Notes: generated by a model from the letters alone, not told the origin. 64,000 bases of DNA from a bacterium (GCA_965249615.1 CBDFMI010000005.1:199462-263461), one strand, 5' to 3'; shown: positions 34,509 to 52,428, numbered from the stretch's first letter. Numbers and translations: made by a program.

Positions 34509-34538
34509 GGGTTACGGAAAATTCCGTGACCCTTTTTT
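34509..34538 (+). terminator. Rho-independent terminator after tRNA-Pro
   Basis: GGGTTACGG-AAAATT-CCGTGACCC followed by TTTTTT. Confidence 0.55.
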
Positions 34539-34729
34539 CTTGCCAATATCCAGAATGTGTCTCGTGACAATACGCGTGCTAGATGGACGCGAGGCGCCAG
34601 TTTCCGAGTTCCAAAAGGCGCTTGACAGCCAAGGGGCGGACTGGTTACCATGGATTTACGCGGACGTAACAACGAGGCAGGTCTCGTTGACAGTCGGCGC
34701 CAAACGATTACGGATTTGGGGAGGTATTT

Positions 34730-35686: not shown

Positions 35687-35815
35687 AGAAAGCTCAGTTA
35701 TAGAGAGGCTGTGAGTTCATAAACGGGGTTTATGTTATCCGGCCCAGAGGAAATAGGCGGCGGCCGTCCGTGAGCGCAGCTCCATCCGAATGACCTCTTG
35801 TCCTGTGGACTCCCT

Positions 35816-36206
35816 TTATTCATCCAGGACAGCGATGGCCTCGATCTCTACCAGTATGTCCGGGCGAGCGAGGGTCGCCTGGACCGTGGATCGGCTCGGC
35901 TTGTTGCTGCCAGGGAAATATTTGGCGTAGACTTCGTTCATGGCCTGGAAGTTCCGTATGTCGGCCAGGAACACGGTGCATTTGACCACGTCTTCCATCT
36001 TGGCCCCCCCCTCTGCGAGGACAGCCTGGACGTTTTTCATCACCTGATCCGTCTGGGCCGGGACGTCGCCAGGACCGACCAGATTGCCCTGGACATCCAT
36101 GGGTATCTGGCCGGACGTGAAAACGAACCCTCCTTGCTTGACACCTGGGGAGTAGGGGTTTTTGGGGACAGCGACGCTTGAGGGCTGAAGGGGAGTTTTT
36201 GGCATC
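35816..36206 (-). CDS. ridA: RidA family protein (YjgF/TdcF reactive-intermediate deaminase)
   Basis: GPYSPGVKQGGFVFTSGQIP ... TVFLADI ... PARSTVQA. ATG at 36206 with AAGGAGA RBS. Confidence 0.85.
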
Positions 36207-36741
36207 TTCTGTCTCCTTGCGTAGAGTTGAAACCGGCTTGATTGGAAAAGGCGTCTCACCTGGGAAGGGCGGATGAGGAGTGTAAGCAATAGGGGTAAAG
36301 GGCACAAGGGGGAATCCCTGACGATGGGCCCATGCGCTGAGAGAAAAGCGGCGTTTGAAGGTGGGAGAAGGGGTGGCTGAGCGGGCCAAGTGGATAAAGC
36401 GGCTTAGCCGACGCCGGCTCCGGATCCCGCCCGGGGGGGGGGAGATTCCTGAAAAGGGGAAGGATCCGCAGGCTGCGCGCCGGCTTGGCAAGGAGGAGGC
36501 GCGGCGGGCCCTTTACGACCCCGACGAGGTAGAGGACGGGGGGAAAGAGTCGGCCGAGGACGAGACGAATCTGGAGGAAAGAGGAAGGGGAGGGGCCTGG
36601 GAAGACGCAATAGTCCTAAGGCGGATCCCGCAGCCCATCTCCTCGTGAGCCGTTGCCGAGAGATCATCGAAAGGAAAAGGGCGAGTTGAGGACAAGAGAT
36701 CGGGGGCGCAACCCCCTAAGGGTCTTCTTCAGTAGAGGGAA

Positions 36742-38001
36742 TTGGAGCGGATGACGCTTCGGCAAGCCACACTCAGCAACGGCATCCGCCTGGTCACTGA
36801 GGCCCGAGAGACGGAGGCCGTCGCCCTTCATATCTACTTTGGCTGCGGAGGCCGACACGAGCCTGACGAAGTGGTCGGTGTATCCCACGCCCTGGAGCAC
36901 ATGATCTTCAAGGGGACGCCGACGCGGACCCATTTCCAGATTGCCCAGGAGATGGAGGGGGTGGGTGCCTCCATCAACGCCAACACCGGGGCCGAGCGGA
37001 CCTGCTATCACTTTCTGGCCCCGGCTGAGGTGGTCCCCCAGGTCCTGGAGGTCTACGCTGATGCCGTGAATAACAGCCTCCTTGATGACGCGGAGTGGGA
37101 AAAGGAGCGAAAGGTCATCCTGGAAGAGCTCAAGATGTATGAGGACATGCCCCGCATCTGGGTCAGCGACCGGCTGGAGACCACCATGTTTAATCTTCAA
37201 GTCGGGATCATCGGAGACCGCGATACCATCCAGAGCATCAAGACCCACCACATGCGTGAGCTGATGGAGCGGTGGTATCGGCCTGAGAACGCCGTCATCT
37301 CCGTGGCAGGCCGAGTCGATCATGACTCCATCCTAGACCTCGTTGAGAAAGCTTTTGGGGAGCGATGGCAAAAAGCTCCCCTTCCAACCCTGCCCAAGCT
37401 CCCGGAGAAAAGCCGCCAACGCATGTGCTCGATTGTGCGCCAGACAGACCAGGTGAATCTTGCCATCGGTTTTCGAGCCCACGGCCACACCCACCCAAGG
37501 CTTGCGGCGCTCCGTCTCCTGAATGACATTCTGGGCGGTAAAATGTCGAGTCGGCTCTTTGAAGAGGTCCGCGAGAAAAGAGGTCTGGCCTACAGCGTAG
37601 GCTCGAGCGTTGACCCGTTCATAGATACAGGCTACGTTGAGCTGAAAGCGGGGGTTGCCCTTGAGAAGACGGTGGAGGCGAGCCGCGTTATCCTCTCCGA
37701 GGCCGCCAGGCTTCGTGAAGAGCTTGTCCCGCAGGAGGAGCTCACGGCAGCCAAGCGCCACCTTCGGGGCCTTATCTTGGTGGAGGAAGAGTCGTCGGAA
37801 TTTGCAGGTCGAAACGGGTCAACCTGGCTTTTAGAGGGACGGGTCCACACCGTGGAGGAAGAACTGGCTGAACTGGACCAGGTGGAGGTCGAGGATCTGC
37901 AACAGGTTGCCCAAGAGGTCTTTCGAGATGAAGAGCTCACCGCTGCCTTCATCGCAGAGAAGGACCTGAGCGAAGATCTGGCGCCGGCCCTCCACATCTA
38001 G
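36742..38001 (+). CDS. M16-family (pitrilysin/insulinase-like) zinc peptidase
   Basis: Inverted zinc motif HALEHMIFKGT and two M16 domains. Confidence 0.8.
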   Translation: MERMTLRQATLSNGIRLVTEARETEAVALHIYFGCGGRHEPDEVVGVSHALEHMIFKGTPTRTHFQIAQEMEGVGASINANTGAERTCYHFLAPAEVVPQVLEVYADAVNNSLLDDAEWEKERKVILEELKMYEDMPRIWVSDRLETTMFNLQVGIIGDRDTIQSIKTHHMRELMERWYRPENAVISVAGRVDHDSILDLVEKAFGERWQKAPLPTLPKLPEKSRQRMCSIVRQTDQVNLAIGFRAHGHTHPRLAALRLLNDILGGKMSSRLFEEVREKRGLAYSVGSSVDPFIDTGYVELKAGVALEKTVEASRVILSEAARLREELVPQEELTAAKRHLRGLILVEEESSEFAGRNGSTWLLEGRVHTVEEELAELDQVEVEDLQQVAQEVFRDEELTAAFIAEKDLSEDLAPALHI

Positions 38002-38114
38002 CAGGGGCCTTCGCGGTCATGCGCAGGCGAGGAGCAGAATTGGCAATATTTAAGGAAGGGAAGACCTGTAAAATCCTGTGTGCCCCAGAAAACCCTGCTG
38101 GGGAGAAAGGATTT

Positions 38115-39473
38115 ATGATTTTTGTCGCATCTTTCCGCCGCCGGGTGGCCCGTTGGCTCTTCCTTCCCCTTCTTTTCGCTACCCCGGGGATGGGGGCGAC
38201 TCAGGAATCTTCCTGTCCGGGGGCGGCGGCTCATTTCCTTGAAGCGGCCGAAGGCACCGAGGACCCCGTCGCCCGGCAATCCCTTCTTGAGCAGGCGATT
38301 GATCTTTGTCCTGAGGACCCCGAACCCTATTTGCTCCTTGGGCGTCTCTACCAGTCTTTGAACCTTAAATCCAGGGCCAGGAGGGCTTACGCCGAAGCCC
38401 TGGGACGGGTGCCGCACCTGCGGGAAATTCTTCGAGAGATGAGCGAGCTTGACCCCGGGAGTCAAGACGACTCCCTTTTGCAGGCCCTCCTCTCTTCCGA
38501 GGCCGGAAAGAGGGTGGCGCTTCCTCCCCAGGAGTCGGCCGAGGAATTGCTGGTGAAGGAGCCGACGGATCCTAAGGCGCGATTGACCCTTGCTGAGGAG
38601 CTGGCAAGCCGGGGTCAAGAGATGTTGCTTCAGAATCTGCCCGGTCTCCCCCTCATTCAAAGGGCCGTCGAGCTCGCCCCGGACTATGGAAGGGCGCGCG
38701 AGCTCTTGGTGGAACACCACCGGACGCTTGGGGATTATCACTACAACGGTGAGCTGTATGAAAAGGCCTTGGCTCAATACCTCAAGGGTCTTGAGTATGA
38801 CTCAGGGGATCCCCTTCTTCACCTCCAAGCCGCGGAGAGCTATAGCCGTCTTGAAGACCGTGAGGAGAACGCCCTGGACCACTATCGAGAGGCTGACCAG
38901 GTATTTGCCTCACGGGTTGAGGAGATGAGTGAAGAAGAGCAGAGATCTCTACAGGAGCGGATCAAACGCGGCCTGACTCGTCTGGACGATACGCAGCCCG
39001 AATACCGTCAGGCCCAGGGGGCCCGCGTTCACACCGAGGGAAGACAATTGCTCGCCCGGGGAGATTACGAAGCGGCCTCCAGGACTCTGAAGGATGCCAT
39101 TGGTTGGACCCCTGGAAACGCCCTCATACACTTCGATCTAGCCACCGCCCTGAAACAGCTTCCACCCCACCGGGAGGAGGCCCTGAGCCAGTTTCAGCGC
39201 GCCTTGTCTCTCTTTGAGACCCATCCTCCGCCCGAAGTGGCTTCCCGGGTAGACCGTTTCAAGGCGCGAACCCAGATCGAGATCGATCACCTGTCTGGTC
39301 AAACCGGATCCTTGACCTACATCCTGCGTCAGCTGGCCGTGGGGGCCCAAGCCCGAGCCCTAGAGATAGGGCTCTTCGTTCTCTCCTTCGGGGCCATCGG
39401 GGCCTACCTTCTGCGGGCGGGACTCCGCTTCAGCGGAGGAGACGCTGATGCCCCTGATGCCGAGGGGACCTGA
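38115..39473 (+). CDS. Secreted TPR-repeat protein
   Basis: Signal peptide, multiple TPR-like helical repeats (YLLLGRLYQSLN ..., ALAQYLKGLEYD ...), C-terminal TM. Confidence 0.55.
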   Translation: MIFVASFRRRVARWLFLPLLFATPGMGATQESSCPGAAAHFLEAAEGTEDPVARQSLLEQAIDLCPEDPEPYLLLGRLYQSLNLKSRARRAYAEALGRVPHLREILREMSELDPGSQDDSLLQALLSSEAGKRVALPPQESAEELLVKEPTDPKARLTLAEELASRGQEMLLQNLPGLPLIQRAVELAPDYGRARELLVEHHRTLGDYHYNGELYEKALAQYLKGLEYDSGDPLLHLQAAESYSRLEDREENALDHYREADQVFASRVEEMSEEEQRSLQERIKRGLTRLDDTQPEYRQAQGARVHTEGRQLLARGDYEAASRTLKDAIGWTPGNALIHFDLATALKQLPPHREEALSQFQRALSLFETHPPPEVASRVDRFKARTQIEIDHLSGQTGSLTYILRQLAVGAQARALEIGLFVLSFGAIGAYLLRAGLRFSGGDADAPDAEGT

Positions 39474-39853
39474 GACCGATCCCACCCAATAGACGCGCAG
39501 GGGACCCGGAGGGGGGATTGGGAGGCTAAGGTCACCACCCAACAGTCATTCACCCAGCGGTCGAACCTCCAGATCCGGTCAAAGACATAGACGTGCTTGA
39601 CCTCGTAGGTGCCCGGCCCGCTTCGGCGGGCGAGCCAGTCATAGGAGCGGGCGTCGACGTTGTAGGCCGAGGCGGTGAGGTTTGTAGGCAGGCGGAGCTG
39701 GACGATCTCAATGGCCTGGGTGCGCTCCCGGGCCTCTTGAAGGTTCTTCCACCAGCGGGCCCCCCCGATCACCAGGAGAGCGGTGGTGAGGAGACCCAGG
39801 CCTATGAGGAGTCCAGGACCGCGCGACCGGGCGATTTTTGTCTCCCCCGACAT
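39404..39853 (-). CDS. Small membrane-anchored hypothetical protein (downstream of GT2)
   Basis: N-terminal TM (LLIGLGLLTTALLVIGG). Starts 4 nt after the GT2 stop. The 3' end overlaps the convergent TPR gene, so the true stop is uncertain. Confidence 0.35.
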   Translation of the reverse strand: MSGETKIARSRGPGLLIGLGLLTTALLVIGGARWWKNLQEARERTQAIEIVQLRLPTNLTASAYNVDARSYDWLARRSGPGTYEVKHVYVFDRIWRFDRWVNDCWVVTLASQSPLRVPCASIGWDRSQVPSASGASASPPLKRSPARRR

Positions 39854-39856
39854 GAC

Positions 39857-40573
39857 TCAAAAGCGGTGCTTTCGAAGCAGGATGGCCCAAAGATACCAAC
39901 GAAAGTAACTGCGGGCCACGCGGAATATCCGAAAGCTGGATGTTCCAAGTGTCCGGCCTCGCCAGACGGTCGGAACCTCTGTGATGCGGTGGCCCTTTAA
40001 AAAGGCCTTGACGCAGATCTCCAGGGACGAAGCGAAGCCCGCCTCCTCCAAGGGGGTTCTGTTCAGGACTTCGGTCCGGTACATTTTAAATGCGTTGCTC
40101 ACGTCGTGCGTGGGAATCCCCGTAAGACGCTTGAGAGAGGCACAGACGAAGCGCGAAAACACCCCTTGAAGCCACGGTCCTCCCAGGCGCTCGCCTCCCG
40201 GCATGTACCGAGAGGCACAAACGACATCATAACCCTCCTCGATTTTCTCATACATCTTCTCGATTGTGTGAGGGTCATCGGCCGCGTCCGCCATCAGTAC
40301 CACGGTGACCGGCGTGTGCACCTCCTCGAATCCCGACCGCAGGGCGTTAGTGATCCCGCGAGGCCGCTGGCTTGAGACGAGTCGCAGGTGGGGATACCGG
40401 GCCGACATCTGATGGACGACCTGGGCGGTCCCGTCATCAGAGCTGTCGTCTACGACAATGACCTCATGGGGAAGGCCCAGGACCCCCTCCAGGGATTCCA
40501 GGGTCTCTCCAATCGTCTCCTCCTCGTTGAGCGCCGGGATGACGACGGTGAGCTTGGGATCTTCAGACATCAT
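39857..40573 (-). CDS. Family 2 glycosyltransferase (dolichyl-phosphate mannosyltransferase-like)
   Basis: VVIPALNEE ... VIVVDDSSDDGT ... DAD motif. Confidence 0.8.
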   Translation of the reverse strand: MMSEDPKLTVVIPALNEEETIGETLESLEGVLGLPHEVIVVDDSSDDGTAQVVHQMSARYPHLRLVSSQRPRGITNALRSGFEEVHTPVTVVLMADAADDPHTIEKMYEKIEEGYDVVCASRYMPGGERLGGPWLQGVFSRFVCASLKRLTGIPTHDVSNAFKMYRTEVLNRTPLEEAGFASSLEICVKAFLKGHRITEVPTVWRGRTLGTSSFRIFRVARSYFRWYLWAILLRKHRF

Positions 40574-41041
40574 ACACCCCTTCACGAAAGGCAGCCGCCC
40601 CTTCACCCCACCGGTTTGAGAGATGGGGAGAGGGAAATTTTAATTCATTGTTTGGGAAAGAAAAGAAAATTGAGAAAAAAGCCCCTCTTCAAAAGAAGAG
40701 AGGCAGCGCAGGCGAGCCCACAGTGTTTCCTTCTGAAGGGCAGTGCGCCCTTCCTTCGGCAGCCATTGGCAGAGCCGGGGCAAAAAGCCCTCGGTGTCCT
40801 GGGTAGGTGCCGTTTGCGCTGGCCGCCGTCCGATTCTCTTCAGCCTGCCTCCCTGCGTTATGTGCCTGCCAACGAAAGACTCGCCTGCGCCTCTCCCACA
40901 AAGCCATCGGTTGGGCAAAAGGGGGCAAACCCAACATCTTGTGCCCTGCTATGCAGTAAAAGGCCAAATATTGGCTTGTCAAGGGAAATATAGGGTGTGA
41001 TCTGTCAGAAGACGCAGAGGCGACGGGGGAGAATTTTTTCC

Positions 41042-41070
41042 TTGACAGGCCAGTTGGGCCACGGTATGTT
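41042..41070 (+). promoter_or_regulatory. Candidate σ70 promoter (TTGACA-17 bp-TATGTT) for the DtxR-like gene
   Basis: Perfect -35 hexamer at 41042-41047, 17-nt spacer, -10 TATGTT at 41065-41070, 43 nt upstream of the ATG at 41113. Confidence 0.4.
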
Positions 41071-41112
41071 CTGCGGCCAGGACAGAGTTTTGTAAGATAA
41101 ACAAGGTTCCCG

Positions 41113-41673
41113 ATGCTAACATTTCAAATCAAAAAAGAGTTCCCCTTCACACCGAGTGAGCAACACTACCTGCGGGCGATATACGAGCTTCAGGAGGAGC
41201 AGGGGTACGCCCGGGTCACGGATGTCGCTCGCAAGCTCAACATCGGCAAAGGGGCCGTTTCTTTGGCTCTGAAAGGGCTGGTCGAGCGCGATCTGATACG
41301 CCACCCCCACTACCAAGTCATCGAGCTCTTGCCCCAGGGGAAGGTGGCGGCCAAGCAAGTGATGAGCCGGTTTGCCGTCCTCAAACATTTCCTTGAACGG
41401 GTTTTAGGCGTCAAAAAGAACATGGCTTACGTTGACGCCTGCCTGATGGAGCATTTCATCAGTGGCGAAACGCTGGATCGCCTCATTGACCTCATTCGTT
41501 TCTTTGAGCTGGAAGATGACCTGGTCCGAGAGGCCGTGCAGCGGTTTCAGGCCTACCGGCGAACCTGCGAGAGCACGGAGCATTGTCCGATCTGCGAGTT
41601 CAACTGCGAGGTGGTCCTTCCCGAGTTGGAGAATTCAGCTGCGGACCCCGGGCCGGGCCACACGGTGAGGTGA
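41113..41673 (+). CDS. DtxR/MntR-family metal-dependent transcriptional regulator with extra C-terminal Cys cluster
   Basis: HTH and dimerization/metal domains (HYLRAIYELQEEQGYARVTDVARKLNIGKGAVS ...). C-terminus CESTEHCPICEFNC (C-x4-C-x2-C-x3-C). Confidence 0.8.
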   Translation: MLTFQIKKEFPFTPSEQHYLRAIYELQEEQGYARVTDVARKLNIGKGAVSLALKGLVERDLIRHPHYQVIELLPQGKVAAKQVMSRFAVLKHFLERVLGVKKNMAYVDACLMEHFISGETLDRLIDLIRFFELEDDLVREAVQRFQAYRRTCESTEHCPICEFNCEVVLPELENSAADPGPGHTVR

Positions 41674-41857
41674 TATCAAGGCCAAAAGTTCCCGAAGGGA
41701 ACCTTTGCCTGTTCCCAATTCCTGACCAGCTACTTCAGCCCCATCGAGGCCGCAAGGAAGCCAGCCAAGGAAGGGAAAAAATTCCTTTCCCGGCTTTTTC
41801 ATGAGTGGGAGGCGAGGCACTCGTCAAGCTTCTGTCTCATTAGGGAGAAAAAGACTA

Positions 41858-42874
41858 ATGGCACTGTTTAGATCTCGGATGAGTTTTTTTCATGCGATTG
41901 CCTGCTTTGCTCTCGCCCCGCTTTTCCTTCTTCTTTGGCCCCCCTTCTCAGGGGCTCAAGAGCTTGTGGTCTATTCGGGGCGAAAGGAGATTGCCATTAA
42001 ACCGGTGATCGAGGCCTTCGAGAAGAAGACCGGTATCCGGGTGGCCTTGAAGATCGGAAAGACGGGCGGGTTCATTAATCAACTCATACAGGAGAGCCGC
42101 AACCCGCAAGCCGACGTCTTCATCTCGACGACGGCGGGGGCGATCATCTCGGTCTCGGATCGGGATCTCTTCCATCCCTATGTTTCCCCGATCGCAAGCT
42201 CCATTCCGGACGTCTACAAGGGCCCTGATGGCCTTTGGACGGGGATCTCCGGGCGAGCTCGAATCCTGATGTATAACACCCAGCTCATCAAGCCTGAAGA
42301 AGTGCCGAGGTCTGTCTTCGAGCTAACGGATCCAAAATACCGAGGTCTTCTGGCCATCGCCAGCACTCGCGAGCGGACCACCCTGGGCTGGCTCAGCGCC
42401 CTGCTGGACTTCTTGGGCGAGGCAGAGGCCAAGGCCTATATCCAGAAACTTCGGGCCAACGGTCTTCACATCCTTCCAGATAACACGGACGTCCGCCGGG
42501 GCGTTGGAAATGGGGAGTTCGCCCTTGGCCTGACGAATTCCCCGAATTTCCATCTCACCTTGAGGGAGGGGGACCCCGTTGGGGTGGTCTTTCCGGATCA
42601 GGGCACTGATCAGATGGGGATACTTATCAATCCCAACACGGTTTCCATCGTGAAAGGGGCAGAAAATCTCGACGAGGCCAAGCAGTTTGTGGATTTCATC
42701 CTTTCCCCGGAGGTGGCTGGGATCCTTGTTCAAAATGCCTTCGAGATCCCCCTTCACCCCGATGTGACCCCCGTGGGTGTCCAAGGTCTCGGGGATTTTA
42801 GTCCAGCCGCCGTGACCCAAAGCCGACTGGGGTCTCTCGCTGAGCGCACCCTAGAGATTTTCCCCGACTTCTGA
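41858..42874 (+). CDS. fbpA: Fe(3+) ABC transporter periplasmic substrate-binding protein (FbpA/AfuA family)
   Basis: Signal peptide plus class II SBP with FbpA-like motifs (ELVVYSGR ... FISTTAGAI ... ILMYNTQLIKPEEVPRS). Confidence 0.8.
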   Translation: MALFRSRMSFFHAIACFALAPLFLLLWPPFSGAQELVVYSGRKEIAIKPVIEAFEKKTGIRVALKIGKTGGFINQLIQESRNPQADVFISTTAGAIISVSDRDLFHPYVSPIASSIPDVYKGPDGLWTGISGRARILMYNTQLIKPEEVPRSVFELTDPKYRGLLAIASTRERTTLGWLSALLDFLGEAEAKAYIQKLRANGLHILPDNTDVRRGVGNGEFALGLTNSPNFHLTLREGDPVGVVFPDQGTDQMGILINPNTVSIVKGAENLDEAKQFVDFILSPEVAGILVQNAFEIPLHPDVTPVGVQGLGDFSPAAVTQSRLGSLAERTLEIFPDF

Positions 42875-42881
42875 GATATCG

Positions 42882-44492
42882 ATGACGCTGGAGACAATCG
42901 CCAGGAGGCCGTCACGAGTTCGGACCCGTCGTTCTCTCGGCGCCGTCAAGTGGTCTATCCCCGTTGCGGTCCTCCTCGTATTCTTTCTGAGCCCCCTCGC
43001 CAATCTCCTCGTGGAGGCCGTTGGCATTAAGTCTCCTGCCCTGGCCACCCTCTTTCGGTCAACCTTGCCCTGGCTTATCCTTCGGACGCTCCTGCTGGCC
43101 CTGGCGACCACCCTGGCGGCCGTCTCCTTGGGGCTTCCTCTGGCTTGGCTTGCCGTCAGGACTGATGTTCCGGGGCGAAGGCTTTGGAGGTGGCTCGGCG
43201 CTCTTCCCCTGGCCATCCCCCCCTATATTGGGGCCCTTGCCTTTCTCAACCTCCTGGGTCCGGGCGGGGTTGTCAATGTCCTCTATCGAGAGGCGACGGG
43301 TGCCCCGGGCCTCATCGTCAACCTCTACAGCTTTGGGGGAACGGTCTTCGTCCTTTCCCTCTTCACCTATCCCCTTGTCTTCCTCTTCACCGCTTCGGCC
43401 CTGGAGGGGAGCCACGCTACCTTCGAGGAGGTGGCCCGAAGCCTTGGTCACCGCTCAGGCAGGGTCTTCTGGCGGGTCACCTTCCCCCTGCTTCGTCCGT
43501 CCCTTTTGGCCGGGGGCTTGCTCGTCTTCCTCTATGTCTTGGCGGACTTTGGCGCAGTCTCCGTCCTGCGCCAGCAGACTTTCACGACAGAGATCTTTCA
43601 TTTCCTGAATACGCGCTTTGATCAGGCGGCGGCCGCGGCCCTCTCCATCATCCTGACGATCATCACTGTTTCTGTTCTCCTGGCTCAACGTCGGTTCCTC
43701 GGGCGGAGAAGCTATGTCCAGATTGAGGGCCGGGCACGCCCGGCTCGCCCCAATCGCCTCGGACCTTGGAGGCCGATCGCTGTCCTTTATCCAGTGACCC
43801 TGACGGCCGCCTCCCTGGGTCTCCCCATCTTTCTCCTCCTTTTACAGATTGAATCTTGGTCGGCTGCCGTGGCGACCGTGCTGGACCAGGCTGGTTTTCT
43901 CTGGGCGAGTGTCTGGACGGCCGCCGTCGCGGCCACGGCGGGAGTCGGCATTGGACTCTTTGCAGGCTATCTAGCCCTTCGCAGGGCCCGCCAGGGCGGG
44001 GCCTCCCTCTTCTGGGGCCTTCAGCTCTGTTATGCCATCCCCGGAACGGTCCTGGGGCTCAGCCTGATCCTCCTCTATAGCTCCTGGCTGCCTTGGGTCT
44101 ACGGGACAGCCGTCATGGTGGTGATTGGCTACACGATTCGTTTCATCCCTCAGGCTGTCCAGGGCATCACGGGGGCCCTTCGGCAAGCCCACCATCAACT
44201 GGAGGAGGCGGCCAGGGGGCTTGGGCTTGGGGCCCTGGAGACTGTCCGGCGGGTCGTCATCCCCCTCATTCGCTCCGGTCTTCTGGCCACCTGGGTCCTC
44301 GTCTTCATCTCTTCCATGAAGGAGTTGGCGGCCACCCTCCTGTTGCGCCCCGCCGGCTTTGATACGTTGCCCGTGCGCATTTGGATCCACACCATTGAGG
44401 CCGATTACTCCAAGGCGTCCACCCTAGCCCTGGTCCTTGTCGCGGTTTCCGCCCTTCCTCTCCTTTTGGTGGAGTGGAGGAGGATCACCTGA
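42882..44492 (+). CDS. fbpB: Fe(3+) ABC transporter permease (fused two-domain FbpB)
   Basis: 536 aa, about 12 TMs, two BPD-transport (EAA) modules. Confidence 0.85.
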   Translation: MTLETIARRPSRVRTRRSLGAVKWSIPVAVLLVFFLSPLANLLVEAVGIKSPALATLFRSTLPWLILRTLLLALATTLAAVSLGLPLAWLAVRTDVPGRRLWRWLGALPLAIPPYIGALAFLNLLGPGGVVNVLYREATGAPGLIVNLYSFGGTVFVLSLFTYPLVFLFTASALEGSHATFEEVARSLGHRSGRVFWRVTFPLLRPSLLAGGLLVFLYVLADFGAVSVLRQQTFTTEIFHFLNTRFDQAAAAALSIILTIITVSVLLAQRRFLGRRSYVQIEGRARPARPNRLGPWRPIAVLYPVTLTAASLGLPIFLLLLQIESWSAAVATVLDQAGFLWASVWTAAVAATAGVGIGLFAGYLALRRARQGGASLFWGLQLCYAIPGTVLGLSLILLYSSWLPWVYGTAVMVVIGYTIRFIPQAVQGITGALRQAHHQLEEAARGLGLGALETVRRVVIPLIRSGLLATWVLVFISSMKELAATLLLRPAGFDTLPVRIWIHTIEADYSKASTLALVLVAVSALPLLLVEWRRIT

Positions 44493-44533
44493 TGGGCATC
44501 GCCTCGCTGCTCGGCCTGAAGGACGTGTGACCC

Positions 44534-45661
44534 TTGTCAACGCCCATTATCAAAGTTGAAGACCTTCGGATGCGCTATGGGGCGCGCGAGCCCTGGGCCG
44601 TCTCCGACGTCTCTCTTTTTTTGGAGGAGGGAGAGATCCTGACCCTCCTTGGCCCAAGCGGGTGCGGCAAGACGACCATGCTCCGCCTCATCGCAGGCTT
44701 TGAGGTCCCCGAACGGGGCCGAGTCGTCATCGATGGGCATTTGGTGGCGGGGGAGGGGGCCTGGTATCCCCCCGAGCAGAGGGGCGTGGGAATGGTCTTT
44801 CAGAACTATGCCCTCTTCCCTCACCTGACAGTGGCAGAGAACGTGGGTTTTGGCCTGCACCCCTGGCCGCTTCCGCTTCGAAACGCCCGGATCGGGGAAG
44901 TCCTGTGCTTGGTGGACCTGCTGGCCCTTCGGGATCGCTATCCCCACGAGCTCTCCGGGGGGCAGCAGCAGCGCATCGCCCTCGCCCGGGCCCTGGCCCC
45001 GGGTCCCCTGGTCATCCTCCTCGACGAGCCCTTCAGCAATCTGGACGCCGACATGAGGGGTCAGGTCCGCCAGGAAGTCCGAGACATCCTGCGGCGCTCC
45101 AAGATGACGGCCCTTTTTGTGACCCACGAGCAGCAGGGGGCCTTTGAGATCTCAGACCGGATCGCCGTCATGAACAAGGGTCGAATCGAGCAGTTGGACA
45201 CGCCAGAGAACATCTTCCACAACCCCGGCACCCCCTTTGTGGCCCGGTTTCTCGGCCAGACTGACCTCGTGCCCGGCGTCATCCGCGGAGATTGCGTGGA
45301 GACAGAGCTTGGCAGCTTCCCCTATTTCACCGACGGCGGGGGCCTCCCCGATGGGATGCGTGTCGAGGCGGTCATCCGGCCGGCCGATGTAGACGTCATT
45401 CCCTCCCGGCAGGGAACGGCCGCGGTGAAGGGACGTCGCTTTCGAGGCTCAGACAACCTCTACACGTTGATCCTCGCCTCGGGAACCAAAGTCCATAGCG
45501 CCACGCCCTGGGATTTCGTCCTCCCCCTTGGAAGCCAGGTTTCGGTCTCGATGGAGCCCCTTCGGGTGGTCGTGTTTCCGGTGGGGGAGGAAAAAACATC
45601 TGAAAACCGGAGCAAAGAAACGCCGAGTTCGACTCTTTCAGGAAGGATGTCAAATGGATAA
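44534..45661 (+). CDS. fbpC: Fe(3+) ABC transporter ATP-binding protein
   Basis: Walker A GPSGCGKTT, signature LSGGQQQRIALARAL, Walker B ILLDEPFS, TOBE-like C-domain. Confidence 0.85.
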   Translation: MSTPIIKVEDLRMRYGAREPWAVSDVSLFLEEGEILTLLGPSGCGKTTMLRLIAGFEVPERGRVVIDGHLVAGEGAWYPPEQRGVGMVFQNYALFPHLTVAENVGFGLHPWPLPLRNARIGEVLCLVDLLALRDRYPHELSGGQQQRIALARALAPGPLVILLDEPFSNLDADMRGQVRQEVRDILRRSKMTALFVTHEQQGAFEISDRIAVMNKGRIEQLDTPENIFHNPGTPFVARFLGQTDLVPGVIRGDCVETELGSFPYFTDGGGLPDGMRVEAVIRPADVDVIPSRQGTAAVKGRRFRGSDNLYTLILASGTKVHSATPWDFVLPLGSQVSVSMEPLRVVVFPVGEEKTSENRSKETPSSTLSGRMSNG

Positions 45662-46157
45662 CAGGAGCATGTACTCACTAAGTTGGCTTGTCGCAGGATT
45701 CCTCTTCCTTTGGACCGGAATTGCCTCTGGGGACGAACAAGTCTTGGCCCAGGAGGTCCGCGAAGGACTTTCCATCGTCGTCATCTCGGAAACCGCTGAG
45801 GGGGTCCACCCTCCCGACCTGACGCTTCCGGCGAATCAGGCGACTCATCACATCGAGGTCTTCGCCACCTTCGCCGAAGGAAACCTTTACGGGGGACATC
45901 CCGCGAGTTTTTTCCCCTACCTCAGACTCCTAGTGACTACCCGTCGGGCGGGAAAGGAAGAGATTTTTCGGACCCCCCTCATCCCCCTGGCTCATCATCG
46001 CGGGCTTCACTATGGGGCCAATGTCAACCTTCCTGAGAAGGGACGCTACGAGATGACCCTTCGGGTGGAGCCGCCTGGTGAGCACGAGGTGGGGCGTCAC
46101 GACGATGTGGGGGACTGGTTTCCCCCCTTCGAGGTGACCTTCGATCTTGTCTATTAA
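45654..46157 (+). CDS. P19 family periplasmic iron/copper-binding protein (FTR1-associated P19 / FetP / FtrA-like)
   Basis: Overlaps the fbpC stop by 8 nt. Signal peptide. Matches P19 motifs: GLHYGANVNL (P19 GPHYGANI) and GRHDDVGDWFPPFEVTFDLVY (P19 GRHVDEETGVGKWFEPFKVDYKFKY). Confidence 0.75.
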   Translation: MDNRSMYSLSWLVAGFLFLWTGIASGDEQVLAQEVREGLSIVVISETAEGVHPPDLTLPANQATHHIEVFATFAEGNLYGGHPASFFPYLRLLVTTRRAGKEEIFRTPLIPLAHHRGLHYGANVNLPEKGRYEMTLRVEPPGEHEVGRHDDVGDWFPPFEVTFDLVY

Positions 46158-46204
46158 ACGCAGACTATTGGGACCTTTGTCGGAAGGGGGTGAGAAATGA
46201 GGTG

Positions 46205-46385
46205 CTAGCAAGGTAAGCTTGTGCGCTCTTAAAAAGAGAAGGCTACCGGCCACAGGATGGCTGTCCGAGCCGGTAGCCCCGCAACCAACCGCTGGCCTTG
46301 CTCCGCTGACGTCGGCGCAGTCTGATTGTAGGATTTTTGCTGCAAAAGTCAACTGCTGAGAGCAAGGCTTACCTTGAAAAGGAGG
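46205..46385 (+). promoter_or_regulatory. Structured 5' leader / candidate cis-regulatory RNA upstream of the porin-like gene
   Basis: Within a 233-nt intergenic region. A 10-bp hairpin GGCTACCGGC(46241-50)/GCCGGTAGCC(46269-78) is nested inside a long-range 10-13-bp pairing CAAGGTAAGC(46209-18)/GCTTACCTTG(46367-76). The second arm abuts the AAAGGAGG RBS (46377-84) of the ATG at 46391. Confidence 0.3.
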
Positions 46386-46390
46386 TAGGC

Positions 46391-47733
46391 ATGCAACGCC
46401 CAGCCGCCATTGGTTTTGTATGGTGCTTTCTCCTCTTGGGGACCGCTTTTGCGTGGGCCCAAGAGGAGGATGTGAAGGGGCGAATTGAGAACCTGGAAAG
46501 GGAGCTTGGGGAAGTCCGGGAACAACTTGAGAGGCAGGGGGAGGAGGTGGAGAGGAGAACGCGTGTCCTTGGGGAGGAGGTGGAGTCTTTCAGGGTGAGG
46601 CTCGCCGTTCCAGAGGTGAGAGAACTAAAGAGTGTTTACGGTCTCGGACCTGCGGCGTCGAAGGTCTATGGCGTTGAACAAGGGCTCTCCATAGGTGGTT
46701 ACGGGGAGTGGACCCTCCAGACGTTTCACGGGGATGTAACGGACGAGCGGAACAAGGCTGACATCTTGCGCACGGTCCTTTACACTGGTTTCAAGTTCAG
46801 CGACCAGTTCGTCCTGAACGCCGAGTTCGAATTCGAGCACGGCACCAGCTCGTCCACATCGAGTTCCTCCAATGGGTCGGTCTCGGTGGAGTTCGCCTAC
46901 CTGGACTGGCTGATAGCGCCCCCCATCAACTTTCGGGTGGGTGGTGTTCTCATCCCGGTGGGTTTTCTCAACGAGGTCCACGAACCCCCCTTCTTCCACG
47001 GGGTGATTCGCCCTTCAGTGGAGCGGCAGATCATACCGACCACTTGGCGGGAGATCGGAGCAGGGTTCTTTGGTGAGCCCTTGCCAGGGCTTGAGTATCG
47101 CACCTATGTGGTCAACGGGATGAACGCCAAGGGCTTCTCAAAGAGCAATATCCGGGGGGGCCGACAGAAACTGAACCGAGCCTTCGCGGAGGATTTTGCC
47201 CTGACCGGACGCTTGGACTATACTGGGGTACCGGGCCTTCTGGTGGGCGGTTCTTTCTTCTGGGGGGACTCAGGCCAGGATTAAAAGTTTGCGGGAAAGA
47301 AAGTAGACGCAGAGCTCCTGATGGGGGACCTCCACGCCCAGTACCGTTTTCGTGGTCTGGAGCTGAGGGCTCTCGGCGTGGCGACCCATATCGGTGATGC
47401 TGACCAACTTAGCAATGACCCGGACATCAAGGGTCCGATCAGCAGTTTCCTCTGGGGATGGTATGCGGAGGCTGCCTACAATGTGCTCCCCCTCTTCCTC
47501 CCGGAGACCGGTCAGTTTCTGGCCCCTTTTTCCGGTGGGAACAATTCAACACCCAGGCGGATGTGCCCAGCGGGTTCACCCCCGATCGCTCGAGGGATAG
47601 AGACCTTCTCACGCTCGGGCTCACCTATAAGCCGATCCCGAACCTCGTCTTCAAGGCCGACTATCGAAACTTCTTCCCGGACGCCGGGGTAGAGGCGGCC
47701 GAGTTCAACTTGGGTGTGGGGTTTGTGTTTTAA
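46391..47733 (+). pseudogene. Outer-membrane β-barrel porin-like protein with N-terminal coiled coil; interrupted by an in-frame TAA and a 1-nt frameshift
   Basis: Signal peptide (AFAWA), coiled coil (IENLERELGEVREQLERQGEEVERR), β-strand-rich body, C-terminal ...NLGVGFVF with terminal Phe. TAA at 47282-47284 is in frame with a homologous continuation. A T-run at 47527-47531 is one T short of giving ...APFFRWEQF... Confidence 0.6.
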
Positions 47734-47793
47734 ACGATGGATTTTCCTTATGGGTCTCGGGAGGGGCTTGCTCCCCTCCCGAGAAGGGGTTCA

Positions 47794-48345
47794 ATGCGGC
47801 AGTTTGAAATGTTGCTGGTCGGTGTTCTCCTCTTTCTCCTTGGCGTGGCTGGAGAAGTCCAAGGCCAGGTGTTTTTGTCTAAGGAGGAAGCCCTTGAGCT
47901 GGCCTTCCCAGAGGCCGATCAGGTAGAACGGAAGACCTTCTTTCTCACGGAAGATCAAAAGGAAAGGGCTGAAGGTCTTGCGAGGAGCGCACTCGATTTC
48001 AATCTCTTCACCTTCTTTGTTGGAAAAAAGGGAGAAAATGTCCTTGGTTATGCCGCCATTGACGTTCACGTTGTCCGCACCTTCCCCGAGGCCTTCCTGA
48101 TCATTCTCGGTCCGGATGGCCGGGTGACAAATACTGTCCTCCTGGCCTTCTATGAGCCGAGAGAATATCTTCCGAGCGAGAGGTGGTTGGAACAGTTTCC
48201 AGGAAGCGACTTGAACTCAGACCTCAGGGTCGGACGTAGAATCCACGGTATCGCGGGTTCGACGCTAACCGCTCGGGCTGTGACAGGGGCGGTGAGAAAG
48301 GTCCTGGCCCTTTACCGGGTGTTGATCCAGGAAGGAGATGGGTAA
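47794..48345 (+). CDS. Periplasmic FMN-binding domain protein (FMN_bind; flavinylation target)
   Basis: Signal/anchor peptide. FMN_bind domain with the flavinylation-type motif HGIAGSTLTARAVTGAVRKVL. Confidence 0.7.
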   Translation: MRQFEMLLVGVLLFLLGVAGEVQGQVFLSKEEALELAFPEADQVERKTFFLTEDQKERAEGLARSALDFNLFTFFVGKKGENVLGYAAIDVHVVRTFPEAFLIILGPDGRVTNTVLLAFYEPREYLPSERWLEQFPGSDLNSDLRVGRRIHGIAGSTLTARAVTGAVRKVLALYRVLIQEGDG

Positions 48346-48860
48346 TGCGATTTGTCGTGACAGGGGAGTGGAAACAAAACGACCTTTTGAGATTTATTCT
48401 TTACTTTTTTCTCCTTTATTCTTCTCTCCTCTGGGTGACGAACCTCCTCCTGAACCTCGGAAAGATGGGCCTCACATATGGCTCGGTGGTTGCCTATTAC
48501 CGGGGGGCGGAGGAACAATTCCTGCAGCCTCGAAGCTATCTCGGGCTCCTGGAGATCACCCATTTTCATGTGTTCGCGATGGGCATTCTCATCCTGACGC
48601 TGACCCATCTTGCACTCTTCGTTCCCGTTCACCCTAGGTTTAAGTTCTGGCTCATTGGGGTTTCTTTCCTTTCCGCCATCTCGGACGAGGGGGGAGGTTG
48701 GCTGACCCGATTCGTCCACCCGGCTTTCGCCTACTTCAAGATCGGTTCTTTTCTTCTGTTCCAAATCTCCCTGGGTACCCTCATCCTCATCGTGTTTTTT
48801 TCCCTCCTGTTTTCACAACGAAATGCCTATTCGGAGGGCCCCGGAAATTCGGCGCCATGA
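48345..48860 (+). CDS. His-rich 4-TM membrane protein of unknown function (possible heme b-binding electron-transfer subunit)
   Basis: ATG overlaps the upstream TAA (TAATG). Four predicted TM helices with conserved-looking His (THFHVF, THLALFVPVH, FVHPAF). Confidence 0.45.
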   Translation: MRFVVTGEWKQNDLLRFILYFFLLYSSLLWVTNLLLNLGKMGLTYGSVVAYYRGAEEQFLQPRSYLGLLEITHFHVFAMGILILTLTHLALFVPVHPRFKFWLIGVSFLSAISDEGGGWLTRFVHPAFAYFKIGSFLLFQISLGTLILIVFFSLLFSQRNAYSEGPGNSAP

Positions 48861-48880
48861 CCCCCGCCCATTGGCAGAGG

Positions 48881-49924
48881 ATGAATAGGCCTAAGGTGCG
48901 GTCCTTTTTCCGGTCTCCTTCGAAGCTTACAAGATTTATTCTGCCGTTATTCCTTCTTTTCAGTCCCCCCCCTGCCTCAAGCCAGGTCCTTTTGGAGGAG
49001 AGCCACTATGTGATGGGAACCTGGTTGAGAATCACCATGCCGGAATCAGACGCCCAGTCCGGCAGAAAAATCCTCCGCCAGGCCTTCGAGGAAGTGCAGC
49101 GCCTGGACGGCCTCCTCAGTCACTATCGGCTAGATACCCCCCTGAGCCGCCTAAATTGTCAGGCGGGACGCGGTCCCCAGGAGGCCCCCTTTGAGCTGAT
49201 GGAGGTGCTCCACATTTCAGCTCGATTAAGCCGTCTCACGGAGGGGGCCTTCGACATCACGATCGGGCCCCTGGTCTCTCTATTAGAGGAGGCAAGTCGG
49301 AGCGGTTTCTGGCCGCAAGATCTCGGCGACGTTCTCCCGAATATTGGGTGGGAACTACTGCGTTTTCCGGGCGGAAACCAGGTGGAACTTTCCCGACCGG
49401 GAATGCACCTTGACCTTGGAGGGATCGGGAAGGGGTACGCGGTCGATCGGATCCGCGAGATCCTGATTGAGGCGGGGACACGCTCGGCCTTCCTCAATTT
49501 TGGTGAGAGTAGCCTCTTGGCCTTGGGCAACCCCCCGGATTCCCCCTCTTGGAATATTCTGGTTCGAGGTCTCGAGCCCGACACCTTCCTTGGGGTCTTG
49601 TCCCTGCGGGACCAGGCTGTGTCTATTTCCTCCACCTTCGGTCGAACATTCCAGGTGGATGGGAAGACCTATGGACATATCTTTGACCCGAGGACAGGGG
49701 CCCCACTTTCTGAACCTGCCCTGGCAGTCGTCGTGGCAGTCAACGCCGCAGAGGCCGAGGCCCTGTCGACGGCGTTGCTGATCCTTGGCGCTGAGGAGGG
49801 ATTTTCCCTCTTGGATCAATTCCCGGGCAGCGCTGCTCTCTATGCTTCCGATGAGGCTGTTAGAATGACGCCCGCTTTTGAAAAGCTCTTCGATTTAACC
49901 ACCTTCGAGAAACAGGACGATTGA
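48881..49924 (+). CDS. apbE: FAD:protein FMN transferase (ApbE/Ftp family), secreted
   Basis: Signal peptide. ApbE motifs (YVMGTWLRITM, GAFDITIGPLVSL, DLGGIGKGYAVDRI, ISSTFGRTF ... GHIFDPRTG). Confidence 0.85.
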   Translation: MNRPKVRSFFRSPSKLTRFILPLFLLFSPPPASSQVLLEESHYVMGTWLRITMPESDAQSGRKILRQAFEEVQRLDGLLSHYRLDTPLSRLNCQAGRGPQEAPFELMEVLHISARLSRLTEGAFDITIGPLVSLLEEASRSGFWPQDLGDVLPNIGWELLRFPGGNQVELSRPGMHLDLGGIGKGYAVDRIREILIEAGTRSAFLNFGESSLLALGNPPDSPSWNILVRGLEPDTFLGVLSLRDQAVSISSTFGRTFQVDGKTYGHIFDPRTGAPLSEPALAVVVAVNAAEAEALSTALLILGAEEGFSLLDQFPGSAALYASDEAVRMTPAFEKLFDLTTFEKQDD

Positions 49925-50086
49925 CGCCTCCAACAGGAGTGGGCTGAGGGCTTCCTTTGGGACCTCTGAGTTCTCCTTCGCCATCAGAAGATGGGCCAGA
50001 TATTTTATTCGCCAGCTAGAATGAAAATGATATTTCTGTGAGGGTTTCTGTTTTTGCCGTCCTGGTTCCTCGGAGGAGCTTCAATC

Positions 50087-50608
50087 ATGACCCTAAGCTT
50101 ACGAGAATTCTAGACAGTCCTGCACGGGACAGTTTTCGGGGCCATCTATCTCATCGCCTTCGCCGGAGGCTTTGCGGGCCTTTGGAGCCTTCGAAAAGAG
50201 TTTGTCACGGCGGAAGGGCTTCGGGAACGGCTTCGCCGCCTCTACGCCGGGGTCTGGGGGATGGCGATCATATGCTGGGTCGCGGTGCTCAGCGGGACCT
50301 ACATCGTTTATCCCTGGTATCGGGCGGCCATCCCAGAGAGCCCCCGCTCGAGGCTCCTGGCCGATCCCGCGAAGGCGGCCTGGCACACCTTTGGGATGGA
50401 GTGGAAGGAGCACATCGGCTGGCCGTCGGCGATCCTGGCAACGGCGGTCGCCTTTGTCGTGACCTACTATGGCCCCGCGCTTTTGAAACGACAGCAGTTG
50501 CGGAAGGCTGTCCTCGTTCTTTTTGTTCTCGCCTTTTTCGCGGCGGCCGTTGCAGGGATTTTTAGGGCGTTTTTGAACAAAGTGGCCCCCATCCTTAGAG
50601 GAGAGTGA
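50087..50608 (+). CDS. Small 4-TM membrane protein with an in-frame TAG at codon 9
   Basis: GGAGGA RBS 10 nt upstream of ATG 50087. Reading frame MTLSLREF-TAG(50111-13)-TVLHGTVFGAIYLIAFAGGFAGLWSL... continues as hydrophobic helices to 50608. No alternative start codon occurs before 50261. Confidence 0.4.
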
Positions 50609-50610
50609 AG

Positions 50611-50945
50611 ATGAATCGTCCAAGCCAACAACTCGCCGATCCCCCGATGGGGCCGGCCCTGGCCGCATCCTCTCCTCCGCCTTCGGGGTGTTTGTCATGG
50701 GGCTTTTTACCACGCTGGCCTCAGGCCTTCCCGGGGTCAAAAGTTTCCTGAACTGGTGGTCGCCGGCAGGACCCCTCACCGGAAAGTCCGGCCTAGGGGT
50801 CATCGCCTGGCTTCTCTCCTGGCTGATCCTCCACGCCCTTTGGAGGAAGCGGGAAGGGGCCTTCGGAAAGATCTGGGTCTTCACGCTGGTCCTCCTCATA
50901 TTGGGTGGGCTCCTGATGTTTCCCCCGATTTTTGAGGCTTTTTAG
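50611..50945 (+). CDS. Small membrane protein, probable frameshift near 50640-50690
   Basis: AGGAGA RBS 7 nt before ATG 50611 (frame ≡1). A hydrophobic ORF continues in frame ≡0 from 50688 (VFVMGLFTTLASG ... 2-3 TMs). C5/G4 runs in the junction. Confidence 0.3.
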
Positions 50946-51093: not shown

Positions 51094-52428
51094 ATGCGGC
51101 TAAAGCGTCATTTGTTAATGGGCCTGGCCATCTGGCTCACCTTGATCTTTGCCATCGGTGCCACAGAATCCTTCGCCCAGGGGGCGGATCTCCTGGACAT
51201 CTTGAAGCGGCGGGGGGTCATCACAGAGGAGGAATTCCAGGAGCTCAAGGGGCGGCAGGCGGAGCGGGCGGCCCAGAGGAACTTTGAGGTCGGCTTCGGC
51301 AAGGGCTTTTTCATCCGGTCCCGGGACAAGCGACGCGAGCTCAAGTTCGACACCCAGATCTTCGAGCAGCTCATGGTCCTTCCAGAAGACTCAGAGGAGG
51401 ACACCACATTCCGGCTCCGCCGGGGCCGGGTGACCCTCAGCGGCCACCTCTTCAAGGATTTCACATATAAGGTCGAATTTGACGGGACCTCGGACCCCGT
51501 TGTGGATACGTCCGCCTACCTCGGTTATGAGCGGTTCAAGCCCTTGAAAGTCCGCTTTGGGCAGAGGAAGGACCCGTTTGGCGGGGAGAAGACTTATAGC
51601 CGGTACAAGCAGTTCTTTATCGAGCGCTCCATGATCTCAGACAACCTGACACCCTCCACCCAGAGAGGGGTCTGGTTCTTGGGGGACCTGTTCAACAAAA
51701 AACTCTCTTATGATGTGGGCGTCACCAACGGGGCCGGCCGGGCCCAGGACAATAACGACGACAAGGATTTTACGGGCCGGCTGATCTGGCGACCTTTCCG
51801 GGACAGCGGCATGCAGGACATTTTACCGCTGGAGATCGGGGGTAACTTCAACATCGGGCACCAGCCTTTCAGCTCTAACGGGGCTCGGACTCGCCTCTTT
51901 TTGCGTGACAACCGGAAGGTCATCTTCAATGCGAGCACCGAGGGGCTTCGCGTCCGAGGTGGCGGGGACATTTTTTATAACAAAGATTACAAGCACGGTC
52001 GCGTTTCCCTCCTTGGGGAGTTTATCTGGCAGCAGAATGAGCGCGAGGGACCTGTGCTGACCGGGACGGGGACCCTCCCCAAGAACCCGGACACTGTCGT
52101 CCGCTACGGCTGGACCCTGTCGGGAGGGGCCCTGCTCCTTGGGAGCCGGAAGAAGAACGGCCTTGAGTTTGTGGCCAGGGTGGAGCAGATCGACGCGGAC
52201 GACTCGGGGAACAACGGCGGGGCCGACGAGCTGGTGGGTCAGCAGTTGACGACCTACGGTCTGGGGCTCAACTTCTGGCCTTATTCACAGCTCCGTTTTT
52301 CCGCGAACGGCTTCATCTTTGACTTTGACCGGGCGACAGACCTGACGTCTGCGGACCCCTTTGAGCAGGAGGGGACGACCTACGGTGTTCTGTTCGCCGC
52401 CATGCTGAAGTTCAAAGGGGCCAACTAA
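51094..52428 (+). CDS. Phosphate-selective porin O/P family outer-membrane protein
   Basis: Signal peptide (SFAQG), Porin_O_P-like sequence ending ...AAMLKFKGAN. AT-rich promoter block upstream. Confidence 0.75.
   Translation: MRLKRHLLMGLAIWLTLIFAIGATESFAQGADLLDILKRRGVITEEEFQELKGRQAERAAQRNFEVGFGKGFFIRSRDKRRELKFDTQIFEQLMVLPEDSEEDTTFRLRRGRVTLSGHLFKDFTYKVEFDGTSDPVVDTSAYLGYERFKPLKVRFGQRKDPFGGEKTYSRYKQFFIERSMISDNLTPSTQRGVWFLGDLFNKKLSYDVGVTNGAGRAQDNNDDKDFTGRLIWRPFRDSGMQDILPLEIGGNFNIGHQPFSSNGARTRLFLRDNRKVIFNASTEGLRVRGGGDIFYNKDYKHGRVSLLGEFIWQQNEREGPVLTGTGTLPKNPDTVVRYGWTLSGGALLLGSRKKNGLEFVARVEQIDADDSGNNGGADELVGQQLTTYGLGLNFWPYSQLRFSANGFIFDFDRATDLTSADPFEQEGTTYGVLFAAMLKFKGAN

Follow-up and report, generated by a model that had tools for sequence, protein, structure and literature searches.

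Periplasmic proteins of the P19/FetP family are thought to depend on an FTR1 permease as well as on a copper site. The P19 gene considered here lies in a bacterial DNA stretch of 64,000 nucleotides (nt), one strand (GCA_965249615.1 CBDFMI010000005.1:199462-263461; hereafter the window), where it stands between the genes of an FbpABC-family ATP-binding cassette (ABC) importer and a set of genes encoding a porin-like protein, a flavin mononucleotide (FMN)-binding protein, a transmembrane (TM) protein of the family Aq_1264_TM, and ApbE. The locus is a variant on the iron systems known to involve P19 and flavinylation. Three things make it unusual: FTR1 is missing from the vicinity, P19 has lost the Met that serves as a copper ligand, and the binding protein of the importer has no Tyr ligands.

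Resembling this locus, the FetMP-FetABCDEF (cFtr1-P19) systems of C. jejuni and E. coli place a periplasmic P19/FetP protein in an iron-regulated cluster with ABC genes and a redox helper; in the FetMP cluster of an E. coli plasmid, this helper is an FMN-binding protein resembling NqrC (PMC6083913). That cluster, when checked, contained genes for DsbA-like, NqrC-like, FTR1, P19, Fe-S, MacB-type ABC, and TlpA proteins. FetMP-FetABCDEF, however, has FTR1/FetM beside P19, an ABC system of the MacB/FtsX type that lacks a binding protein, a DUF2318 Fe-S protein, and thioredoxins, whereas the window has no FTR1 and combines a type-I importer and its binding protein with Aq_1264_TM, ApbE, a porin, and a Met-less P19. 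The reducing power that acts on iron in the periplasm has been proposed to come from FMN-binding or thioredoxin proteins (PMC6083913). In the iron-uptake cluster FtrABCD of Bordetella, Brucella, and Azospirillum, P19 (FtrA) likewise has a partner of its own for handling electrons, but the cupredoxin FtrB, the permease FtrC (FTR1), and the polyferredoxin FtrD are all missing from the cluster in the window; the Azospirillum cluster, as checked, encodes P19, cupredoxin, FTR1, and polyferredoxin. One compared locus, L178 (L-numbers denote compared loci or contigs), complements the window in this respect, carrying a cupredoxin and FTR1 beside the flavin genes while lacking P19.

Clusters that unite P19, FTR1, and FMN-binding genes have already been published (PMC8238504). 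The 260 clusters of Meheust et al. (2021) resemble the window in pairing P19 with an FMN-binding protein flavinylated by ApbE, but they are mostly Gram-positive, are described as occurring with FTR1, and have no dedicated transmembrane component (PMC8238504), whereas the window comes from a diderm, as its porin indicates, includes Aq_1264_TM, and has an ABC importer instead of FTR1. Flavinylated assimilatory iron reductases (PepSY-like, MsrQ-like, and DUF4405; PMC8238504, PMC11334425) share with the locus ApbE, an extracytosolic flavoprotein, a small membrane protein, and an iron-regulated setting; the membrane protein of the window, however, belongs to PF27139, has four TM helices, and bears no detectable similarity to their cytochromes. 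The importer is composed like FbpABC, FutABC, and HitABC, with a binding protein, a fused double permease, and an ATPase with a TOBE domain, and its closest solved relatives are FbpA-type, but the iron-ligand positions of its binding protein are all substituted.

A sequence-only reading had presented P19 as the fourth gene of an Fe3+ ABC importer and as its probable metal-delivery or redox accessory. ORF (open reading frame) order and Pfam matches agree that P19 directly follows an FbpABC-family importer, and its score against PF10634 secures the proposed P19/Tp34 assignment. That reading ended at 46157, however, omitting the redox module that is the better-supported partner of P19. The genes downstream of the ATPase, all co-directional, run P19, porin, FMN-binding protein, Aq_1264_TM protein, ApbE:

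45591..50083: accessory cassette of about 4.5 kilobases (kb), absent from L009, L174, and L175 and a divergent block relative to L001.
45654..46157, + strand: P19/FetP-family periplasmic protein, 167 amino acids (aa); PF10634 Iron_transport, 80.6 bits against a cut-off of 21 bits, residues 34-167.
46391..47733, + strand: inactivated gene for an outer-membrane porin-like protein, coiled coil at the N-terminus; weak beta-barrel Pfam matches.
47794..48345, + strand: secreted FMN-binding-domain protein, 183 aa, presumed ApbE substrate; motif IAGSTLT, FMN-binding C-terminus.
48345..48860, + strand: membrane protein with four TM helices, family Aq_1264_TM (PF27139), 171 aa; homologues carry PF27139.
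48857..49924, + strand: ApbE, flavin adenine dinucleotide (FAD):protein FMN transferase; PF02424, 207.2 bits.

Genome comparison favors the placement of P19 in a swappable cassette over its assignment to the ABC importer as such. Contig L009 is collinear with the window at 91% nucleotide identity over 34531-45590 and again from 50084, with 45591-50083 missing; all that it retains of the cassette is 28 nt left over from the spacer between P19 and the porin. In L009 (L176 is the same contig), as in L174 and L175, which are 2.1 Mb contigs, the genes for DtxR, the binding protein, the permease, and the ATPase are followed directly by the next genes. In L001, which has the cassette, identity to the window is 98-99% in both flanks and about 79-93% within 45433-49892. 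Synonymous divergence (dS) between the two is 0.02-0.05 for the regulator, binding protein, and permease, with nonsynonymous to synonymous ratios (dN/dS) of 0.09-0.30; it is 0.10 for the ATPase, whose gene crosses the block boundary (dN/dS 0.40), and reaches 0.35-0.53 for P19, porin, FMN-binding protein, TM protein, and ApbE (dN/dS 0.12-0.29). Shared presence and absence together with a common block of divergence therefore mean that the five genes have been passed on together and have a history of their own, and their dN/dS values show purifying selection.

These comparisons bear directly on the proposal that P19 is a dedicated chaperone or redox accessory of the FbpABC-type importer, passing metal to the binding protein, and that the flavin genes form an unrelated operon. 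The association is real as far as it goes. P19 and the importer occur in the same order in L001 and L002; in L003, a 40%-identical relative, genes for an ATPase, DtxR, a HemP-like ORF, P19, a BFN_dom protein, and a binding protein follow one another, so that P19 lies between the DtxR and binding-protein genes and near the ATPase gene; and a binding protein without Tyr ligands is one for which a metal-presenting partner would make sense. The P19 ATG (45654-45656) also overlaps the ATPase stop (TAA, 45659-45661) by 8 nt, as first described, and has its own ribosome-binding site (AGGAAGGA) upstream. The overlap is lost in L001, however, where the junction of ATPase stop and P19 start is a 27 nt tandem duplication (9957-10010; AGGAAGGGTGTCAAATGAATAACAGGA, two copies) that puts the P19 start 20 nt past the ATPase stop, and it is therefore not conserved. 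The three close relatives described above keep the importer operon without P19, Tyr-less binding proteins occur without P19 in L009-L013, L171, and L172, and none of 80 genome loci with related binding proteins has P19 within 10 kb. The divergence block that includes P19 is common to the flavin genes and not to the ABC genes, and in L008 P19 comes directly after an FMN-binding protein and Aq_1264_TM. A role for P19 as importer accessory is on this balance unlikely: its association with the importer stands in L001, L002, and L003, but P19 is cassette-borne and absent beside the importer in other relatives.

The remaining cassette genes (porin, FMN-binding protein, Aq_1264_TM, and ApbE) recur elsewhere as a module, for which no description was found in the literature searched. 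A search at E <= 1e-5 puts the size of the Aq_1264_TM family at 2,234 proteins, and those that are named are all called hypothetical or uncharacterized. In a sample of 80 metagenome loci with Aq_1264_TM, many of them on short contigs, an FMN-binding protein was found in 73, a porin in 45, and ApbE in 42, while a Fur-like gene accompanied 11, bacterioferritin 6, and FTR1 4. Loci in which the module adjoins FTR1 include L108, L126, and L137. Further arrangements, in gene order, are the following:

L097: DtxR, ABC importer (with a YY binding protein), FTR1 (177 bits), BFN_dom, ApbE, porin, FMN-binding protein, TM protein, bacterioferritin.
L178: IdeR, cupredoxin, FTR1, Bfd, ferritin, ApbE, porin, FMN-binding protein, TM protein.
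L173 and one further place: IdeR, ferritin (with or without Bfd), then the module.
L171 (Ca. Methylomirabilis limnetica) and L172: Tyr-less binding protein, permease, ATPase, (BFN_dom), ApbE, porin, FMN-binding protein, TM protein, multicopper oxidase.

The module thus recurs beside varied iron-import routes and copper proteins, and in the window P19 fills that slot. The multicopper oxidase of the last arrangement (Cu-oxidase_3 plus Cu-oxidase_2, about 383 aa) directly follows Aq_1264_TM at 8530-9678 in L171 and 8569-9723 in L172, and this two-domain enzyme may be the ferroxidase counterpart of P19. HemP-like small ORFs ending in ...Y(R/L)L(Q/R)(V/I)TK..(K/R)L(L/I)LTK were seen in two iron clusters (L003 1261-1479 and L097 5753-6100), and there is none in the window.

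The reading we prefer, with a probability of roughly one in two, is that the locus encodes an iron-regulated periplasmic flavin redox module which, together with a variant P19, would feed an ABC route. ApbE would covalently flavinylate the FMN-binding protein in the periplasm, and the Aq_1264_TM protein would link this flavoprotein to the membrane electron pool. The flavoprotein could then exchange electrons with periplasmic iron or with P19, which would hold the iron; in P19 the copper-ligand Met has become Leu and an additional His has been gained. Iron would enter by whichever inner-membrane route is at hand, namely the adjacent ABC importer here and FTR1 in other genomes. The genes would be co-transcribed, and iron would be handed to the ABC binding protein. 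The outcome would be a chain for reductive uptake of iron, with an ABC importer standing in for FTR1 and the flavin module for polyferredoxin or thioredoxin partners.

P19 itself appears to be an intact periplasmic metal-binding protein under purifying selection (dN/dS 0.29 against L001). Its N-terminus (MDNRSMYSLSWLVAGFLFLWTGIASGDE) resembles a signal peptide as judged by eye, and its translation holds the motifs GLHYGAN and GRHDDVGDWFPPFEV that had been read from the sequence. Aligned with FetP (3nrp, E = 1.7e-14), it keeps H44, E46, H97, and H127 as H66, E68, H119, and H149, the acidic iron-site residue E46 among them, while the copper ligand M90 is replaced by L112, which leaves the copper site of three His and one Met incomplete. 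The same column was altered in the engineered FetP variant M90I (PDB 5i0x). Met occupies this column in 91 of 130 members of the PF10634 family, but all six members of the P19 subfamily found in a word-indexed search have Leu or Ile there, together with an extra His (THH[IV]E, His65 in the window), which is present in 16 of the 130. An exhaustive HMMER search of 1.84 billion representative proteins returned, besides the window's own protein, two relatives above 40% identity, and a profile scan of genome and metagenome contigs with the subfamily alignment gave no match. The subfamily is rare and altered at its copper site.

The title of a study cited in PMC10783030 states that the copper site is required for FetM/FTR1-dependent transport. 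The loss of its Met, suggesting an altered mechanism, is one of two observations that tell against an FTR1 partner encoded outside the window, in which case adjacency to the ABC genes would reflect shared regulation by iron starvation only. The other is the lack of FTR1 near the gene. The claim that the window has no FTR1/EfeU proved correct by three routes: no ORF in its 64 kb has paired REXXE motifs, and tblastn and hidden Markov model searches built from four confirmed FTR1 proteins returned nothing (best E = 0.7). Among the other loci of the P19 subfamily, L001-L008, FTR1 (PF03239) was likewise not seen, most of those contigs being short. A distant permease nevertheless has its own attractions, in that canonical P19 genes adjoin FTR1 (FetMP on the E. 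coli plasmid, FtrABCD in Azospirillum; PMC8238504), the flavin module stands beside FTR1 in L097, L178, L108, L126, and L137, and the window covers just 64 kb of a contig of 699 kb. We regard such a partner as quite unlikely.

Up to and including P19, five co-directional + strand ORFs lie head to tail (41113-41673, 41801-42874, 42882-44492, 44534-45661, and 45528-46157), the last of them containing P19. The features on this side of the locus, and one hairpin beyond P19, are:

41042..41070, + strand: sigma-70-like promoter match, TTGACA-17-TATGTT, upstream of the regulator gene; 10/12 positions.
41113..41673, + strand: DtxR/MntR-family metalloregulator, 186 aa; PF01325 Fe_dep_repress 43.4 bits, PF02742 Fe_dep_repr_C 49.3 bits.
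41769..41800, + strand: terminator-like hairpin and T-run between the regulator and binding-protein genes.
41858..42874, + strand: FbpA-family periplasmic binding protein; SBP_bac_6/1/8/11, GLTNSPNF replacing NHYY/NTYY.
42882..44492, + strand: fused double permease, FbpB-like, 536 aa; two BPD_transp_1, 99.6% amino acid identity to L001.
44534..45661, + strand: ABC ATPase; ABC_tran and TOBE_2, last ~24 codons not conserved.
46241..46278, + strand: perfect hairpin with a stem of 10 base pairs, no T-run (GGCTACCGGC ... GCCGGTAGCC), downstream of P19.

A DtxR-like gene does come first, as the sequence-only reading had it, but the hairpin and T-run at 41769-41800 intervene, and a single operon led by the regulator is therefore undemonstrated. 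The promoter that it called a textbook σ70 promoter is a consensus match and, with 5 such sites in the region against 2.4 +/- 1.7 in shuffles, is suggestive of a promoter without being proof of one. The regulator has an N-terminal helix-turn-helix and a metal-binding and dimerization domain, according to its Pfam matches. The C-terminal tails of the ATPases of the window, L001, and L009 are unlike one another.

The system might not concern iron: the Tyr-less binding protein and the Met-less P19 could instead handle a different metal, such as Mn, Zn, or Cu, or else an organic compound of the phosphonate type. Several features would suit this reading: the binding protein keeps 0 of 5 FutA-type iron-ligand positions, its best NCBIfam matches are PhnS-type, far under the cut-off, and the regulator scaffold scores highest against MntR. 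The regulator, however, keeps just 2 of the 6 Mn ligands of MntR 1on1, with E99 replaced by Cys110 and D8 by His18, and Glu113 and His114 are also present. The DtxR primary site (Met10, Cys102, Glu105, and His106) has its Met10 at the MntR D8 position now held by His18, so that the metal site of the regulator seems to resemble a DtxR-type Cys, Glu, His site and would be more consistent with iron than with manganese. An assignment to manganese on the strength of the MntR scaffold was dropped for the same two reasons, the 2/6 ligands and the DtxR-type Cys. Among solved structures, those most closely related to the binding protein all bind ferric iron, and the neighbors of the flavin module elsewhere include FTR1, ferritin, Bfd, Fur, and IdeR. 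A system for a substrate other than iron is accordingly improbable.

The regulator also has a C-terminal Cys4 motif, CESTEHCPICEFNC (C-x5-C-x2-C-x3-C, 41566-41607), and no FeoA domain; at this place IdeR and DtxR carry an SH3/FeoA-like domain. The spacing of the four Cys is identical in the 50%-identical regulator of L003 (CESEKSCRICAFHC), and the motif may be an Fe-S or Zn site.

For the binding protein (ORF 41801-42874), gene calls in L001 and L174 make the ATG at 41858 the likelier start, giving 338 aa. Its best PDB matches are FbpA, FutA, and HitA (7w3w, 1.5e-36; FutA1 2pt1, 3.7e-31), and its closest named relatives come from Nitrospirales metagenome-assembled genomes (MAGs). In an alignment of 85 sequences (82 relatives, two PDB references, and the window protein) the YY pair is present in 74, whereas at the FutA1 ligand columns H, Y, Y, and YY the window protein has K, E, T, and P-N. 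TNSP[NDSA] replaces YY in a clade made up of the window, L001, L009, the Nitrospirales MAGs L010-L013, L017, and the Methylomirabilis-type L171/L172. To judge from these substitutions the protein would be ferric-type at the family level only: the FbpA/FutA relationship behind the label of an Fe3+ importer is sound, but the ligand residues for Fe3+ are absent and the label is unproven. In three of the Nitrospirales MAGs, orphan Tyr-less FbpA-like proteins with 49-53% identity (L010 5269-6177, L011 6761-7672, and L013 10001-10903) sit between queC-like and glgA-like genes with no permease or ATPase gene near.

Several observations weigh against the preferred reading of a flavin redox module that feeds an ABC route. 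The binding protein without Tyr-Tyr ligands for Fe3+ leaves its own substrate unestablished, and no convincing operator or palindrome is shared by the upstream regions of the regulator, binding-protein, and porin genes. P19 was found in none of the 80 Aq_1264_TM metagenome loci, which makes its pairing with the module rare. The FMN-binding protein of the window scores 16.8 bits, below the FMN_bind cut-off of 22, and has AGST instead of SGAT; its assignment is supported, on the other hand, by a 51%-identical homologue in L008 that reaches 31.4 bits and has the canonical SGAT, and by the 45 homologues with a detected motif, in which this follows [TSAVM]G[AS]T, with the Thr retained. The AlphaFold2 model of Aq_1264_TM (four TM helices, mean pLDDT 79, pTM 0.71) matches no PDB fold, known electron-transfer folds included. 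H73, H75, and H88 are invariant in this protein and H125 nearly so, but three of these four conserved His point toward one membrane face, unlike those of a classical di-haem cytochrome b.

The cassette may, moreover, be decaying in the window genome. The porin is broken by a TAA at 47282-47284, where L001, whose porin is intact at 449 aa, has CAG, and by a 1 nt deletion near 47530. The change from CAG to TAA needs two or three substitutions, and a sequencing error is therefore unlikely for the nonsense codon, while the frameshift falls in a C/T-rich run and could therefore be an assembly or sequencing error. A BFN_dom gene (PF02577, 'bifunctional nuclease'), which in L001 lies between the porin and FMN-binding genes (12187-12660), is missing at 47733-47794. 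BFN_dom genes recur in these iron clusters, at L003 2294-2773, L097 6192-6683, and L172 4183-4689.

Taken to its limit, such decay would make the cassette a remnant and leave P19 functionally disconnected. The loss of the whole block in close relatives and a premature TAG in the small ORF at its right boundary point the same way as the porin and BFN_dom lesions. P19, the FMN-binding protein, the TM protein, and ApbE are, however, all intact, with dN/dS values of 0.12-0.29, and two overlaps are kept, of 1 nt between the FMN-binding and Aq_1264_TM genes and of 4 nt between the Aq_1264_TM stop and the ApbE start, which suggest translational coupling. With the porin frameshift itself possibly an error, a merely decaying remnant is highly improbable.

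The small ORF to the right of the cassette (50088-50114) has its TAG at codon 9 and corresponds to a 58 aa small membrane protein in L009 and L174. Some 650 base pairs beyond it (50217-50864) have no counterpart in L009, and L001 has other genes there; the premature stop and the differing gene content mean that the right flank is variable. Past the cassette, a second outer-membrane porin (Porin_O_P, 70.5 bits; 51094-52428) is present in all relatives, whether they have the cassette or not.

Beyond the preferred reading lies a broader and more tentative one, which we consider possible, although less likely than not: a widespread flavin-based periplasmic iron redox module with interchangeable partners, of which this locus would be a bacterial, ABC-based counterpart of the yeast Fre-Fet3-Ftr1 reductive pathway. 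The import route may then be a Tyr-less FbpABC-like importer or FTR1, and the copper or iron accessory may be a Met-less P19, a cupredoxin, or a two-domain multicopper oxidase. In the yeast-like form of this proposal P19, without its canonical copper site, may act as the iron shuttle that connects the flavoprotein with the binding protein.

If the pairing of P19 with the flavin module is functional, P19 would be able to handle periplasmic iron in varied settings and would not be tied to FTR1 as one of its subunits, and the pairing would provide a first functional handle on the large and uncharacterized Aq_1264_TM family, which occurs in iron regulons of Methylomirabilota and relatives and with a clade of FbpA-like binding proteins without the classical Fe3+ ligands. 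Because near-identical genomes differ in having or lacking the cassette, they form a natural comparison for its share in iron uptake.

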